From the NCBI GenBank assembly GCA_037131105.1, contig JBAXRQ010000001.1, forward strand, positions 194,039 to 258,038: DNA of 64,000 bases. Direction: 5' to 3'. Source of the stretch: a bacterium. Lineage in GTDB: Bacteria > Patescibacteriota > UBA1384 > CAILIB01. Every line of letters starts with the position of its first letter. Position 1 is the stretch's first letter. Positions 53,312 through 58,987 of the stretch are shown piece by piece. A program made the position numbers and the translations under genes. The notes under the pieces were generated by a model. It ran no database searches. It worked only from the letters and a program-made list of their open reading frames with translations, and had not been told where the DNA came from.

Positions 53312-54121
53312 CTAGGATTTTTCTAGTTCCTCTGCCAGCTCTTTCACGATCCGCTTATCCGTCTCCGCCTTATCCCAGTCAACGGTTCCTGAAGTGTTTT
53401 GGTTGAATTGGATACCGTTCTCACAGCTCCAGGAGATCCTATTTAGTAGGGCGTATACCGTCACTATTTTTCTTTGCTCTGGACTGAGAACTTCGGCGTC
53501 CATAACGGCGTTGGTGTAGGCCTCTCCGTGACGGGTGCCATACCAACTGGCCTTGATGCGTCCGATGGTCTCCAACGGGTCGCCTTGGGCCAGAGCATCG
53601 AGGTCCACTAGTCCGCTGAACTCTCCCTCATGGACCATTACGTTTTTGCTGGACATGTCGTCGAAGTAGGTGGTTGCCTCCACATGGTTGAAGTAGTCGC
53701 GGTAGCGGTCGAAGACTTCATTAAGAAGCGATTCGAGATCGCCGTCCATTACTCCTGTCTGAAGGCCTCGCTCCTTGGCATTGTTGACCAGTTCCTCCAT
53801 GCAATCTGTCCAAGACTCGAGTAGCTTGCTGTCGTCTCCTAGCTTGTCGCCGAACCTCCCGTTGTTGGGTATCTCTCGGAGCTGTTTGAATATATGGGAG
53901 ATCTCACGGGCGATGGCTGTCAGCTCATCGTCACTAAGCGTATCAATGACGTTGGTGATGTCGGTGCCGGGAAGTTTGGAAAGCACCTGGTAGGCATAGG
54001 GAACGAGCTGGCGGGAGTAGTCCTCGCTCAGGATGCCGTCATCGCTGCAAGTTACTGAATGGCGGCTACCTGCCTCGAAGTCATTGCCGCCCGGGGAATA
54101 CCGTTGGAAAGTGAATGTCAT
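53312..54121 (-). CDS. phosphotransferase (APH/choline-kinase-like) family protein, catalytic motif degenerate
   Basis: Segment NVMVHEGEFSGLVDLDALAQGDPLETIG resembles the APH Brenner/DFG region but lacks the canonical HGD. Confidence 0.35.
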   Translation of the reverse strand: MTFTFQRYSPGGNDFEAGSRHSVTCSDDGILSEDYSRQLVPYAYQVLSKLPGTDITNVIDTLSDDELTAIAREISHIFKQLREIPNNGRFGDKLGDDSKLLESWTDCMEELVNNAKERGLQTGVMDGDLESLLNEVFDRYRDYFNHVEATTYFDDMSSKNVMVHEGEFSGLVDLDALAQGDPLETIGRIKASWYGTRHGEAYTNAVMDAEVLSPEQRKIVTVYALLNRISWSCENGIQFNQNTSGTVDWDKAETDKRIVKELAEELEKS

Positions 54122-54881
54122 AGGCCGTGGGGAGAGTGCTTGGACCGGCGCGTATTTCCGTGTCGCGCAGCCTACGGAGGCCAGAGAAGCAGCTGAAGCT
54201 GAGCGACGCTTCGCGGGCGACGATGAAGCTTTAGTTGCGGTCTACCTCAAGCATGGGCTACTCATAGATACCTATCCGGCGCTCAAGCGCCTCTACGAGC
54301 GGACCGACGATCCCCAGCGCAAACAGCGACTTCAGTATTACCTGCAGGCCGCCGGCCTTCTGAATTGCGCGACCTGCGGATTCCGAGTGACCGCCGAAAA
54401 GTCGAAGGGCCATATCTACTACCATTGCAACAATCGCACTGGAACCTGTACCAAGCGGGGCATCCGTGAGGAAGTTCTGGAGGGGCGGATCGACGCTTTG
54501 TTGGAGGACATTACCGTGTATCCCGAATATGAGCGGCTCGCTTTGGAGATTCTCGATGACATGCGACAGGAGGCATTGAGTAGCCGCCAGGCCATCTTTG
54601 AGTCGCGGCAGCAGGCTTTGGCCGATCTGAAGCGTCAGAAGGACGCCTTGCTGGGTATTTTCCTACAGGGTCACATTACTGACGACGAGTTCGCTGCCAA
54701 GAAGACTGAACTTGTGAAGCTGGACGGAGCAGTCAACCTCAAGGGCGAAGATTCGGAGGAAGAACTGAACGGGGTCTGGCAGACCGCCGCCAGCGCCGTG
54801 AGCTTCATGGCGCAGACAAGGATCCAGTTCCACACGGGGGGATGTGGCCAGCAAGCGCTATGTGGCGGCACACTTGGGTGA
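54120..54881 (+). pseudogene. 5'-truncated remnant of a large serine recombinase (zinc-ribbon + coiled-coil C-terminal part only)
   Basis: CATCGFRVTAEKSKGHIYYHCNNRTGTCTKRG zinc ribbon and downstream coiled coil are paralogous to the C-terminus of the 21490-23061 recombinase; the catalytic resolvase domain is absent. Confidence 0.5.
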
Positions 54882-55340: not shown

Positions 55341-56315
55341 ATGAACGAACTGATGACACAAGGCCAGCTCGATGAAGTCGGCCGCCTCTTCGCCCAACCG
55401 TTTGTCGATCACGGCATCACCGTGGACGACTACCAAATCGTCCGCCAGGACCCCGCCTTCAAGGCGCTCCTGCAAGGACCGGGCGAATACGTCCGGAAAT
55501 TCATCGTCCGCCGTGATTCGGTATCTTCCTATCTCTTCGTCGATGCCCTCCCAGAGAGCGGCTACACGAAGGCGAACACTACGCTCACCTACGACTGGTC
55601 GAAGCGTGGCAGTGAGGACGACCGGCTCGGCAATATCGCCAAGGCAGTGAAAGCTGCATTCGGCATCAACGATGTTGTCCTTACCAATTCGGTGGTTGCA
55701 ATGCCGGCCTGGCAGACCTGCCTCGTGGTTTCTCCGGTTGATCTTCTGCTCCAGATGGGTCTTGACCCTGCGAGCGTGAAGAATACGGACTACTGCAAGC
55801 TGGTCGCCAGCCTGATGAACCAGTTGGCTGGCGTCAAGCCTACCGACTACGTCAATACGTGCCTGGCAACCGAAGCCGCCCGCCTCGAAGCGGAAACGCT
55901 CAAAGCATGGCTTGCCGTTCCGACTACCCAGGAGAAAGGGCAGCCGCTCATCGTCCGCCGCATGGCCGTTAATCCGGCAATCTGGCTTGACCATGAAGGC
56001 ACCGCCTATTCTTTCGCCCCCTTGCACACTCCAGCCCTGTTCGCCAACCTTCCGGTTTCGAACAAGGTGAAGAAAGTGCTCCCGGGTGACATGGTCGTCG
56101 CAGCGAGCCTCCTCATCGGAGAGCCTCACTTGGTTGACCAGATCAAGGCTGGAGCCTGCCCACGTATCGATGTTCCGGGAACGGAATTGCGCGACGACGG
56201 GTCGTGGTCTGGCCGCCCGTGCGTGGACAGGGACGGCTCAGAGGCGTGGATCGACTTCTACTTTGCCGTCGCTGCCGTTGACTTCTTCGGTTCGCTCGGC
56301 TGCGCCTGGGAGTAA
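55341..56315 (+). CDS. DGR target protein with C-terminal C-type-lectin/FGE-like variable domain
   Basis: C-terminal LRDDGSWSGRPCVDR...FGSLGCAWE follows the RGGSWNN...GFRCA CLec-VR pattern; contains the VR; ATG at 55341 has an AAGGA RBS (the longer ORF from 55278 lacks an RBS). Confidence 0.75.
   Translation: MNELMTQGQLDEVGRLFAQPFVDHGITVDDYQIVRQDPAFKALLQGPGEYVRKFIVRRDSVSSYLFVDALPESGYTKANTTLTYDWSKRGSEDDRLGNIAKAVKAAFGINDVVLTNSVVAMPAWQTCLVVSPVDLLLQMGLDPASVKNTDYCKLVASLMNQLAGVKPTDYVNTCLATEAARLEAETLKAWLAVPTTQEKGQPLIVRRMAVNPAIWLDHEGTAYSFAPLHTPALFANLPVSNKVKKVLPGDMVVAASLLIGEPHLVDQIKAGACPRIDVPGTELRDDGSWSGRPCVDRDGSEAWIDFYFAVAAVDFFGSLGCAWE
56187..56311 (+). repeat. DGR variable repeat (VR)
   Basis: 125 bp colinear with TR; 17 mismatches, all at TR adenines. 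Confidence 0.85.
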
Positions 56316-56368
56316 CTGGGCATTTGAATTTCGGCACTTTGGTCTTCTTGACCATTTGCCATTTGACT

Positions 56369-56403
56369 CACGGTATCTGCTTGCAGATACCGTGTTTTAT
56401 TTT
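56369..56403 (+). terminator. hairpin + T-run downstream of VR (target-gene terminator and/or DGR homing-associated hairpin)
   Basis: cacggtatctgc tt gcagataccgtg followed by ttttatttt. Confidence 0.55.
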
Positions 56404-56538
56404 CGTCAGAAAATAAATAACTGGTTTGCTGCTGCGAGGGGGAGTGTGGTATCTTCTGAGTTGAAATGGGGAATGGGAATGCTCGAGCCCTATTTTTAAA
56501 TTTCCAAAACTGGCTAGAATAAGGAGGAAATTAGGTTC

Positions 56539-56772
56539 ATGAACGGCCGTTCACGGATTGCCGTCACCGAAATCACGCTTCTGCCACCGGTAGAGTTGGG
56601 AGCATCTACGGATCTCCCAAGCGTCCAGGCAGCAAGGGTACTCCGTGCCTTGTCCAAGATGGGGAAGACCCGCATGAAATACAGGGATTGTTATTTTCTA
56701 ACACCCGGTGACTTGGATAGGATGAGGCACTTTTGCGCAACGACGGGTCGTGGTCTAACCGCCCGAACGTGA
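56539..56772 (+). CDS. small DGR-associated ORF with strong Shine-Dalgarno, 3' end overlapping the TR
   Basis: AAGGAGG 10 nt upstream of the ATG; 77 aa; function unknown. Confidence 0.35.
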   Translation: MNGRSRIAVTEITLLPPVELGASTDLPSVQAARVLRALSKMGKTRMKYRDCYFLTPGDLDRMRHFCATTGRGLTART

Positions 56773-56857
56773 ACAGGGACGACTCAGAGGCGTGGATCGA
56801 CAACAACTTTGCCGACAATGCCAATGACAACTTCGGTTCGCTCGGCTGCGCCTGGGA
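56733..56857 (+). repeat. DGR template repeat (TR)
   Basis: Nine AAY codons in the VR reading frame; the identical 3' ~40 bp is shared with VR (IMH-like region). Confidence 0.85.
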
Positions 56858-56862
56858 CTGCC

Positions 56863-57183
56863 CTAGCTGAGACTACGTATCCACCCTCCTAGCATCTTTC
56901 CAATTTCTTGGAGGAAGCTCTGGAGGGTGAGGTACTTTTTATCGTCTACGCACTTGGTCTCAAGGGCGAGTCGCACCAACATTTTTAACACATCGAGCTT
57001 GGCGCTGAGCGCCACGAGGGCATTCCTCTTCAGGCTGTTCGGTAGCTGGTTTGCGTGGAGCAACCCTTCAAGCAGTTCCAGCGCCGCATCCTCAAGCCGA
57101 GCTCCTAGCGAAAATCGCTCAACCTTCGGAAATAAATGGATCCATACATGCAGCTGGCAGTAGAAATTAAAAGTTTTCCCCAC
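56863..57183 (-). CDS. avd: Avd-like accessory variability determinant (four-helix-bundle protein)
   Basis: About 106 aa; ERFSLGARLEDAALELLEGL...IGKMLGGWIRS resembles the Bordetella-phage Avd / 23S-rRNA-IVS four-helix family; annotated start is GTG. Confidence 0.65.
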   Translation of the reverse strand: MGKTFNFYCQLHVWIHLFPKVERFSLGARLEDAALELLEGLLHANQLPNSLKRNALVALSAKLDVLKMLVRLALETKCVDDKKYLTLQSFLQEIGKMLGGWIRSLS

Positions 57184-57184
57184 G

Positions 57185-58237
57185 ATGGGGAGGGAACTGG
57201 GCGATTCTCGGGGGGGGAGTTATGGGCATAGTTATCCACAGATAAAGTTTGGCGACATCGTTTCGCTGGAAAACCTGGTAAAGGCCTGGTACGAGTTCCG
57301 CAACGGCAAGCGGTCTAAGCGGGACGTCCAGGAGTTTGAGTTCACCCTTGAGGATAGCATATTTGAACTCGCTGAGGAACTAAAAAACGGCTCCTACAAG
57401 CCACAAAGGTATCACCAGTTCCGCATCAACGACCCCAAGCCGCGCCTCATCAGCAAGGCTGCCGTCCGGGATAGGCTAGTGCACCACGCCATCTATCGCA
57501 TCTTGTACCCCCACTTTGATACCAGCTTCATCTTCGACTCGTACTCATGCCGGGTGAACAAGGGTACCCACAAGGCCTTTGACCGTCTGCAGGATATGAT
57601 TGGGGTGGTAAGCCGGAATTACACGAAGCCCTGCTTCGCCCTGAAGATGGACATCCGCCGCTTCTTCGACAGCATCGACCACGGCATCCTGCTAGAACTA
57701 CTCAAGTACCGCATAGAAGATGAAAAAGTTATTAACTTGCTCCACGAAATCATCGAGAGCTTTGAGGTGAAGCCGGGCAAGGGCATGCCGATAGGCAACC
57801 TCACCTCTCAGCTCTTCGCCAACGTCTATATGGACCCGCTGGACAAGTTCGTGAAGCACAAGCTTAAGGCGAGGTACTACCTGCGCTATGCCGATGACTT
57901 CCTTATCCTGGCCAGTTCCGAGTCGGAGCTGATGGGATGCTTCGTTGAAATAAACGTGTTTCTTAAAGAAACATTAAAACTTGAGCTGCACCCGAACAAG
58001 ATCTCGTTACGGAAATTAAGCTGGGGAATCGACTTCGTCGGCTACGTCGCCCGCCCGCACTATTCCGTTCCCAGGAACGGCACCGCCAAGCGGATGCTGC
58101 GGAATATTGGCAAAGTCGCCGATCCGGAGAAGGTACCGGCCACGCTTGATTCCTATCTGGGATACTTAAGCCATGTCAGCGCCAGGAAAATCGAGGACGA
58201 GCTGCGGCAGAAGGCGGCAGATATTTTGGGGCACTAA
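57185..58237 (+). CDS. DGR reverse transcriptase
   Basis: RT motifs 1-7, including DIRRFFDSIDH, RYADDF, and the DGR-diagnostic IGNLTSQLFANVYM (SQ instead of the group-II SP); 350 aa. Confidence 0.85.
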   Translation: MGRELGDSRGGSYGHSYPQIKFGDIVSLENLVKAWYEFRNGKRSKRDVQEFEFTLEDSIFELAEELKNGSYKPQRYHQFRINDPKPRLISKAAVRDRLVHHAIYRILYPHFDTSFIFDSYSCRVNKGTHKAFDRLQDMIGVVSRNYTKPCFALKMDIRRFFDSIDHGILLELLKYRIEDEKVINLLHEIIESFEVKPGKGMPIGNLTSQLFANVYMDPLDKFVKHKLKARYYLRYADDFLILASSESELMGCFVEINVFLKETLKLELHPNKISLRKLSWGIDFVGYVARPHYSVPRNGTAKRMLRNIGKVADPEKVPATLDSYLGYLSHVSARKIEDELRQKAADILGH

Positions 58238-58548: not shown

Positions 58549-58625
58549 TGGTAGCGCCAGCGGGATTCGAACCCGCGATTTCCGGGATGAAAACCCGGCG
58601 TCCTAGGCCTCTAGACGATGGCGCC
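58549..58625 (-). tRNA. tRNA-Glu (anticodon TTC)
   Basis: Hand-folded: acceptor GGCGCCA/TGGCGCT, D-arm GTCTAGAGGCCTAGGAC, anticodon loop TTTTCAT, T-arm GCGGGTTCGAATCCCGC, CCA encoded. Confidence 0.8.
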
Positions 58626-58876: not shown

Positions 58877-58915
58877 CCAGAAAAATAGACACCCAGTGGG
58901 TGTCTATTTTTCTGG
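58877..58915. terminator. 18-bp perfect hairpin ccagaaaaatagacaccc agt gggtgtctatttttctgg abutting the tRNA-Lys 3' end
   Basis: Direct reading; right arm ends in the encoded CCA of tRNA-Lys. Confidence 0.6.
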
Positions 58916-58987
58916 TGGGTCCGGTGGGAATCGAACCCACAACCAATGGCTTAAGAGGCCACTGCTCTACCGTTGAGCTACAGACCC
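58913..58987 (-). tRNA. tRNA-Lys (anticodon CTT)
   Basis: Hand-folded: acceptor GGGTCTG/CGGACCC, D-arm GCTCAACGGTAGAGC, anticodon loop CTCTTAA, T-arm GTGGGTTCGATTCCCAC, CCA encoded. Confidence 0.8.

Follow-up and report, generated by a model that had tools for sequence, protein, structure and literature searches.

Abutting divergent avd and reverse transcriptase starts, and a simple repeat at their junction, in a diversity-generating retroelement of a patescibacterium

How two genes can be expressed when their start codons face each other across a single base is the question raised by a locus in a Patescibacteriota contig (JBAXRQ010000001.1, positions 194,039 to 258,038), a stretch of 64,000 nt analysed as a whole and referred to here as the window. 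The locus is a complete diversity-generating retroelement (DGR) of the type found in the candidate phyla radiation (CPR), with the layout known as B3. Its avd gene (106 amino acids) occupies positions 56863–57183 of the minus strand and starts with GTG, and its reverse transcriptase (RT) gene (350 amino acids) occupies positions 57185–58237 of the plus strand and starts with ATG. Positions 57181–57187 of the plus strand read CAC G ATG, CAC being the reverse complement of the avd GTG, and one base, the G at 57184, lies between the two starts. An earlier interpretation made from the letters alone (the sequence-only reading) had placed these starts head-to-head 1–2 bp apart, with avd inverted relative to both the template repeat (TR) and RT and with no intergenic space for a promoter. 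These points stand: the gap is exactly 1 nt, from GTG 57183 to ATG 57185, avd is on the minus strand with TR and RT on the plus strand, and a single nucleotide is all that is left between the starts. Its description of the GTG as annotated has to be corrected, as the window carries no annotation and this codon is the first canonical start of the open reading frame (ORF).

Neither gene offers a ready alternative start. Upstream of the GTG, the avd frame remains open up to a stop just past a G tract (approximately 57220) and contains no ATG, GTG or TTG over that interval; the RT frame upstream of ATG 57185 is shut by a TAG at 57161, and no canonical RT start is present in the window between 57185 and the conserved SLENL...AW motif. 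For both proteins, initiation at the next in-frame canonical start downstream would remove conserved N-terminal residues, and in avd that codon lies far within the protein. The sequence-only reading had raised the possibility that the true starts are internal; this is unsupported, as close Avd proteins share the (V/M)GKTF opening (homologues at 68–94% identity begin with the same VGKTF or MGKTF), the family profiles are covered from position 6–10 and RT lacks a canonical start at the place used by more distant relatives. In an independent assembly of 100% identical sequence (L128), the gene calls for avd and RT are likewise 1 nt apart, and the string CAC-G-ATG recurs unchanged in the related loci L116 and L118. 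Distant relatives start RT 21–22 codons before the AW, where the window reads GGG/TAT. The avd GTG and the RT ATG are thus abutting divergent starts one base apart; that cells actually use these two codons is what we infer from the sequence.

The orientation is shared by nearly all relatives. Among 114 related loci that were fetched, 98 had an Avd hit, which with the window makes 99, and in 98 of these 99, the window included, avd lies on the opposite strand directly upstream of RT; the sole exception (L110) is merely 35% identical. Architecture B3, 'TR-(avd)-RT', was defined by Wu et al. (2018, PMC5758913), who found it in 90% of their CPR set. The inversion that the sequence-only reading set against canonical DGRs is therefore real but is the standard B3 layout; it was already known and is not peculiar to this element. 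Packing at the junction is tight throughout: between the conserved Pro in the PK motif of Avd and the conserved Trp in the AW motif of RT, relatives mostly have 140–185 nt and the window has 158 nt. In many other relatives in which it can be assigned, the avd–RT gap is commonly about 30–50 nt, so that the ordinary divergent spacing which the sequence-only reading expected of homologues if the abutment were false occurs in more distant relatives only, and not in the window's own sub-clade. Gaps of 1 nt are present in L116, L118 and L120, of 7 nt in L081/L083 (in agreement with Joint Genome Institute gene calls at 887 and 895) and of 13 nt in L119, where RT starts with GTG, while in L117 the RT ATG overlaps the Avd codon at the avd start position, which there is ATT. 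In L116, with an RT 63% identical to that of the window, both genes were independently called with the 1-nt gap. Tight head-to-head packing is thus the rule in the family, and the 1-nt gap is its extreme, seen in the window's sub-clade. L118 keeps the same ATG without the RT body. This short Logan contig (L118:1-330) carries leader, TR, avd and the junction with G10, and past the tract it has unrelated sequence, a hairpin and what looks to be a tRNA gene in place of the RT body; the contig could be a remnant that has lost RT or else an assembly chimera.

The G tract was absent from the earlier description of the junction, although no other feature here is as likely to govern expression. It is a G8 homopolymer (57210–57217, plus strand; C8 on the avd strand) that starts 25 bases into the RT ORF, spans RT codons 9–11 (Arg-Gly-Gly) and is separated from the avd start by 26 nt. 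The window has no other G/C run of at least 7, and GGG is its rarest Gly codon. Poly-G of at least 7 (range 7–13, on the RT strand) is present at the junction in 62 of the 98 divergent loci, the window included, and (GT)n, (GA)n or (CT)n of 6–16 units (threshold, at least 6 units) in another 13, giving a junction repeat of either kind in 75 of the 98. Among 5051 control windows of the same size taken from the same loci, five contained a G/C run of at least 7 and three a dinucleotide repeat. An RT start follows the tract in 41 of 61 non-redundant poly-G loci; the avd start codon of these relatives, often TTG, lies 4–15 nt on the far side of the tract, and in 11 of the 41 there are RT-frame stops between tract and RT start, making the tract intergenic. 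The remaining 20, the window among them, have no start after the tract, and each gene's frame continues across it, as GGG (Gly) in RT and as CCC (Pro) in Avd. The motif TAnnnT abuts the tract in 14 of the 61 loci against 2.1 expected (P = 2e-8), and in 8 of these 14 an in-frame ATG occurs exactly 7 nt later, as in L012 (G13-TAGAAT-aaataat-ATG). TAnnnT, 7 nt and ATG are spaced as in a leaderless promoter, in which the tract would be the spacer. We rejected poly-G as a Shine–Dalgarno (SD) site for a downstream RT start, the spacing to the relatives' ATG being 13–22 nt and the window having no later start.

Repeat length differs between sequences that are otherwise the same. Three pairs of identical or near-identical contigs from different assemblies are length-variable: L084 with (GA)13 and L120 with (GA)9 are separated by this indel and one single-nucleotide polymorphism in 3.9 kb, L002 with (GT)13 and L090 with (GT)14 have one other difference, in the first 1.8 kb, and L129/L130 with G11 and L131 with G10 have 0 mismatches in 2408 nt (the comparison site being at about position 673 of these 2408-nt loci). 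In the last case the avd gene call is 89 amino acids at G11 and 127 at G10. The long Avd ORF of L131 opens at an ATG 6 nt from the RT ATG, beyond the tract, a geometry that points to near-abutting divergent starts having arisen in a second configuration within the family.

One repeat unit decides which starts are in frame. At G8, the window has ATG 57185 in frame with RT, and at G9, RT would have no start. At G7, an ATG at 57148–57150 (plus strand, antisense to the avd His12 codon) comes into frame for a longer RT beginning MQLAVEIKSFPHDGEGTGRFSGG... and, necessarily together with it, an ATG at 57227–57229 (minus strand, antisense to the RT His15 codon) comes into frame for a longer Avd beginning MPITPPRESPSSLPIVGKTF... 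The long RT form is in frame in L085, L086 and L084, and the equivalent of the long Avd in L086, L085 and L131; within the (GA)n pair, L120 has the short RT start in frame (product P0013) and L084 the long forms. RT has no start after the repeat in 21 loci; in 10 of these the repeat length as assembled leaves RT without any in-frame canonical start, and a change of one unit would supply an ATG in every one of the 10. The short RT start is nevertheless kept in register across tracts of different length. The distance from the avd start to a conserved RT His codon is 43, 46, 43, 46 and 46 nt in the window, L081, L116, L117 and L119, in each case 1 modulo 3 despite tracts of 8, 11, 11, 8 and 12, respectively. 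In the window and five sub-clade relatives, an in-frame RT start lies within 13 nt of the avd start (or the Val/Ile position corresponding to it), even though its exact site turns over among them. Maintenance of the register despite varied tract length suggests that the short RT start has been under selection in the sub-clade.

With 1 nt between the starts there is no room for promoters other than within the partner gene, and in this the suggestion of the sequence-only reading, that promoters are embedded or avd is transcribed separately, was judged right: avd must be transcribed separately, with promoters or leaders located in the partner's codons. For avd, a weak candidate −10 box, GAGAAT (57204–57209, minus strand), abuts the C tract; the leader would then be about 13 nt long. 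A box is in register in seven of eight sub-clade loci (GAGAAT, GAGATT, ACAATT or AACGAT, with A at position 2 and T at position 6), and in the window the same bases encode RT Asp-Ser-Arg. RT might be expressed from one of several weak hexamers located in avd codons 3–8, or by read-through from the TR promoter. No SD site is present at either the avd or the RT start, which is uninformative because SD-like motifs precede 8 of 45 long ORFs in the window, equal to the background of 19%. Across the 45 long ORFs of the whole window, many genes have a TAnnnT 6–9 nt before the ATG, which suggests that leaderless or short-leader messages are widespread in this genome, and TAnnnT at leaderless spacing is found before RT in at least eight relatives. 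A hairpin with a T run resembling a terminator was noted at 57387–57404 (minus strand), in the RT 5′ region, where it would halt antisense transcription before avd; it may be due to chance, the scan having given 4 sites against 3.9 expected.

The TR RNA probably has a promoter of its own. A candidate −10 box, TAGAAT, lies at 56515–56520 (plus strand), and TAnnnT occupies the same alignment column in all seven sub-clade sequences (TAGAAT, TAAAAT, TACCTT, TATAGT, TAAGAT, TACAAT and TAAGAT) while the flanks diverge; transcription is predicted to start at approximately 56527–56529. Directly upstream of the TR follows a structured non-coding leader of about 200 nt (56534–56730, plus strand), which is approximately 80% identical at the nucleotide level in seven relatives whose RT proteins are 60–75% identical. 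It consists of invariant blocks without codon periodicity, and of 53 pairs predicted by RNAalifold, 21 show compensatory double changes. The leader has no match in Rfam, which gave chance-level matches alone over 56350–57350 and only tRNAs above the gathering threshold over the window. A 77-amino acid ORF within this region (56539–56772, preceded by a strong-looking AAGGAGG, starting with ATG and called as a gene in the source) was considered as a DGR accessory protein and rejected: it has no family matches, the ATG is absent in four of seven relatives, the frame is broken in relatives, and the nucleotide-level conservation and covariation mark the ORF as spurious. A second structured RNA, in the avd antisense between TR and RT, was also rejected, as RNAalifold on eight sequences and both strands gave no covariation and equal z-scores. 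Nor was there extra synonymous-site constraint along avd, the third-position entropy at four-fold sites being 1.7–2.0 bits, the conserved C-terminus included. The sequence-only reading, in which the avd/RT layout affects how TR RNA and RT are co-expressed, did not take in this conserved promoter and structured leader of the TR RNA.

We propose the following explanation for these data. The element runs in the order target gene with its variable repeat (VR), structured leader and TR, avd reversed, then RT. avd and RT would be a compact divergent pair, each with its promoter or leader inside the first codons of its partner, and short or absent leaders would fit a genome that makes little use of SD sites. 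The TR RNA would be independent of the junction, having its own −10 box (56515–56520) and leader (about 56534–56730), and transcription from its promoter may run through avd antisense into RT. The G8 would be one member of a family-wide simple repeat held at the avd/RT junction, where slippage by one unit would shift the RT and long-Avd frames in and out of register with their start codons, so that the repeat could act as a slipped-strand on/off or volume control of the DGR enzymes. The change in length between identical contigs, together with the frame effect of a single unit, makes a slipped-strand switch the most likely function. We consider this account as a whole rather probable: two divergent genes packed closely, their promoters embedded in one another, a structured TR RNA expressed from a promoter of its own, and a repeat that is probably a slipped-strand switch. 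A further step, in which one hypermutable repeat is a two-way phase-variation switch that acts on the RT/long-Avd frame in the sub-clade and on promoter spacing in other relatives, is put forward tentatively, as less likely than not.

Several observations weigh against this explanation. Distant Avd proteins have N-termini (DVPIIQK) similar to the Avd-frame residues just before the GTG, which are LPIV in the window and PIPIV in its relatives, a likeness which implies that the GTG may not be the only avd start in use. Synonymous changes in PIPIV were taken up as proof that Avd is translated before the GTG and then dropped, as the third positions of RT and Avd coincide. A full sigma-70-like promoter was found on neither strand by the promoter prediction over 56860–57400 that the sequence-only reading had suggested, in a scan that demands both hexamers and may not suit this organism, and no TAnnnT ends 6–8 nt before ATG 57185 or GTG 57183, as leaderless geometry would have it. 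Poly-G length is constant in five contigs of a Kazan element (G11) and in two of another (G9), and G8 is the same in the window and L128; the G10/G11 difference could be a homopolymer sequencing or assembly error. All of the repeats contain G (G, GT, GA and one (CT)n, which is AG on the avd strand) and none of the junctions has poly-A/T, AT-rich relatives included, which indicates that composition may matter besides slippage. Finally, about half of the window-type relatives lack an in-frame canonical RT start, and these could equally well initiate RT in an unrecognized manner.

The last point is one of those behind the idea that the abutment is apparent only, with RT translated from a non-canonical start after the tract, for example ATA 57242, the tract serving as promoter DNA and the genes about 58 nt apart. 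RT does start after the tract in the 41 of 61 poly-G relatives, typically 21–22 codons before the AW, a −10-like box abuts the tract in 14 poly-G relatives, a canonical start in frame ahead of the repeat is lacking in 10 of 21 window-type relatives, and the ATA product, MKFGDIVSLENL, is similar to P0032 (MFDQIISLENL). We regard it as improbable, since in the window there is no ATG, GTG or TTG from 57218 to the conserved SLENL, the post-tract hexamers are weak (AGTTAT, CATAGT), initiation at ATA is very inefficient and AUG is normally required by leaderless messages; moreover, the RT frame is in register with a near upstream ATG or GTG in the window and five relatives with repeats of 8, 11, 11, 8, 12 and (GA)9. 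It is, in our estimate, very unlikely that G7 is the functional state, with RT starting at 57148 and avd at 57229 and G8 being an off-phase or minor allele or an assembly error. The long forms, brought into frame together by geometric necessity in an antisense overlap of about 27 first codons (82 nt), are in frame as assembled in L084, L085 and L086; the long-Avd N-terminus MP(I/L)TPP is alike in the window, L081, L117 and L131, and PIPIV before the GTG is conserved with third-position changes and matches distant Avd N-termini. As third positions coincide in the short-form register, such synonymous-looking changes are silent on which frame is read, and the long-form ATGs exist because conserved His codons of the opposite strand are CAT. 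The short-form register is shared by the window and five relatives, and two assemblies concur on G8.

Another possibility is that the repeat is a fixed structural element, such as a G-rich promoter spacer or extended −10 context, non-B DNA or an RNA element, with its length differences due to neutral slippage. Polypurine tracts and (GT)n form triplex or Z-DNA, and in a non-B DNA variant of this explanation the repeat would absorb negative supercoiling between the divergent promoters. The restriction to G-containing motifs, never poly-A/T even in AT-rich relatives, would fit, as would the stable poly-G length in 5+2+2 near-identical contigs and the position of the tract directly upstream of a −10-like box in 14 relatives. 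We consider it somewhat unlikely, however, because three different motifs at the same site argue against one structure or sequence, the lengths of 7–13 show no preferred value, the repeat is nearly the sole difference in three identical or near-identical pairs, and in the window the tract is inside an ORF, where any change in length is a frameshift. Compatible with the divergent-pair explanation, and also on the unlikely side, is the possibility that RT has no promoter of its own and is expressed from a long transcript that begins at the TR promoter (approximately 56527) and passes through TR and avd antisense, so that TR RNA and RT are co-expressed as in the Bordetella phage, with avd transcription opposing. 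TR and RT are indeed on one strand, no terminator-like plus-strand site occurs in 56859–57185, and the A/U-rich stretch 57164–57177 before the RT ATG would suit SD-independent initiation in an SD-poor genome. Convergent transcription over avd would hamper avd expression, though, the avd antisense shows neither conserved RNA structure nor extra synonymous-site constraint, and the −10-like box with leaderless spacing close to RT in many relatives implies an RT promoter elsewhere in the family.

If the two-way phase-variation switch is correct, targeted hypermutation would be turned on and off stochastically, a contingency switch set on top of a diversity generator and widespread in candidate-phyla bacteria. 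No known system of targeted protein diversification is more powerful than DGRs, which occur particularly often in these bacteria. To our knowledge almost nothing has been established about how DGR activity is controlled, and the mechanistic work that we know of all comes from one phage element of another layout. Start-to-start packing, the TR promoter and leader, and a repeat in about three-quarters of the relatives together give a testable hypothesis of on/off mutagenesis, and RNA and promoter parts are now defined for reconstituting a CPR DGR. There is also a consequence for annotation, as the repeat and the overlapping frames mean that RT and avd genes of such elements are often mis-started, truncated or missed. 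Avd gene-call lengths in related elements vary from 64 to 165 amino acids for this reason, and a protein search with the window Avd returned no 100% match, although L128 has the 106-amino acid avd call.

Repeats of this kind are familiar from phase-variable loci. In Haemophilus influenzae hifA/hifB, (TA)n between overlapping divergent promoters brings about phase variation; the Neisseria porA poly-G and opc poly-C tracts are promoter spacers, Bordetella pertussis fim genes have poly-C, and Campylobacter jejuni carries poly-G tracts in 5′ coding regions. As in those systems, a repeat able to slip (G8, and G7–G13 in relatives) is located in the 5′ coding region or the core promoter: a slippage-prone repeat of 7–13 units is found either within the opening codons of an ORF or, in a divergent gene pair, separating a −10 box from the promoter DNA upstream of it; its motif turns over between lineages, and copies occur in and out of frame. 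Its length differs in three pairs of otherwise identical or near-identical relatives but is constant in two other sets of near-identical contigs and between the two assemblies of this element. The resemblance falls short of a class assignment, the poly-G evidence being thin. Known phase-variable systems switch surface structures, whereas here the genes would be enzymes of targeted hypermutation, and, unlike in those systems, one repeat would serve both divergent genes, switching that we infer here from sequence.

Among DGRs, the Bordetella phage BPP-1 element (mtd-avd-TR-brt) shares with the window the adenine-specific TR-to-VR transfer, the pairing of Avd with RT, a GC-rich 3′ end common to TR and VR and a hairpin after VR; unlike in the window, avd is co-directional and upstream of TR. 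Part of BPP-1 avd and the 140-nt spacer between TR and brt reportedly belong to the functional RNA. In the window, the upstream flank is instead a dedicated non-coding structured leader, and the TR–RT stretch is avd antisense in which conserved structure was not found. The BPP-1 template RNA needs flanking RNA for cDNA synthesis, as described in two reports (Handa et al., 2018, PMC6182149; bioRxiv 10.1101/2023.10.23.563531). CPR/DPANN B3 DGRs have the same order and orientation, and their VR-bearing target gene likewise lies upstream (Wu et al., 2018, Nucleic Acids Res 46:11, PMC5758913); to this the window adds starts that abut, a conserved repeat at the junction and a structured leader before TR, of which there is no mention in the accessible part of that paper. 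The literature searched for DGRs in connection with poly-G, homopolymers, simple repeats or phase variation, with Paul et al. 2017 (Nat Microbiol) outside its coverage, yielded nothing relevant, and within it there is no mention of avd and RT starts that abut, of a conserved repeat of variable length between them, of the leaderless-type geometry of RT promoters in relatives or of a structured leader ahead of TR.

At the level of sequence, the remaining parts of the element are those expected of a DGR. TR (56733–56858, plus strand) and VR (56187–56311, plus strand) form a direct repeat, D1, of 125 nt at 86% identity. When the two are aligned, each of the 17 differences is at a position where the second copy has an adenine, so that this copy is the template repeat. 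Its 3′ end is 4 nt from the avd stop, so that TR and avd are tail-to-tail as avd and RT are head-to-head. VR is at the 3′ end of the target gene and ends just before its stop codon; the target gene (55341–56315, plus strand) was called in the source from ATG 55341 (657–1631 in L128), its longest ORF begins at TTG 55278, and no Pfam or NCBIfam family matches it. A C-type lectin or Ig fold would be expected of a DGR target. Downstream of VR, a terminator-like scan found a GC-rich hairpin of 11 bp with a T run (56369–56404, plus strand), which may represent a terminator or else the hairpin that DGRs carry after the initiation of mutagenic homing (IMH) sequence. Avd matches Pfam bAvd (PF22296; 3e-17, 63.4 bits against 40) and NCBIfam DivGenRetAVD (NF033474; 80.8 bits with a curated cutoff of 80, residues 3–103 on profile positions 6–104). 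RT matches RVT_1 (6e-24), is 100% identical to MEI6477617.1 and falls below cutoff for the group II intron, retron and Drt models in the NCBIfam scan; it carries the motif IGNLTSQ, of which we take the SQ to be the mark of DGR RTs. Its closest relatives come from metagenome-assembled genomes of Patescibacteria, Kazan and Berkelbacteria. Just upstream of the target gene, a 282-amino acid ORF (54033–54881, plus strand) has a recombinase zinc beta-ribbon (PF13408, 2e-9) and is likened to the C-terminal part of a large serine recombinase, which hints that the DGR lies in or beside a mobile element or prophage remnant. Directly downstream of RT are tRNA-Glu(ttc) at 58549–58625 and tRNA-Lys(ctt) at 58913–58987, both on the minus strand.

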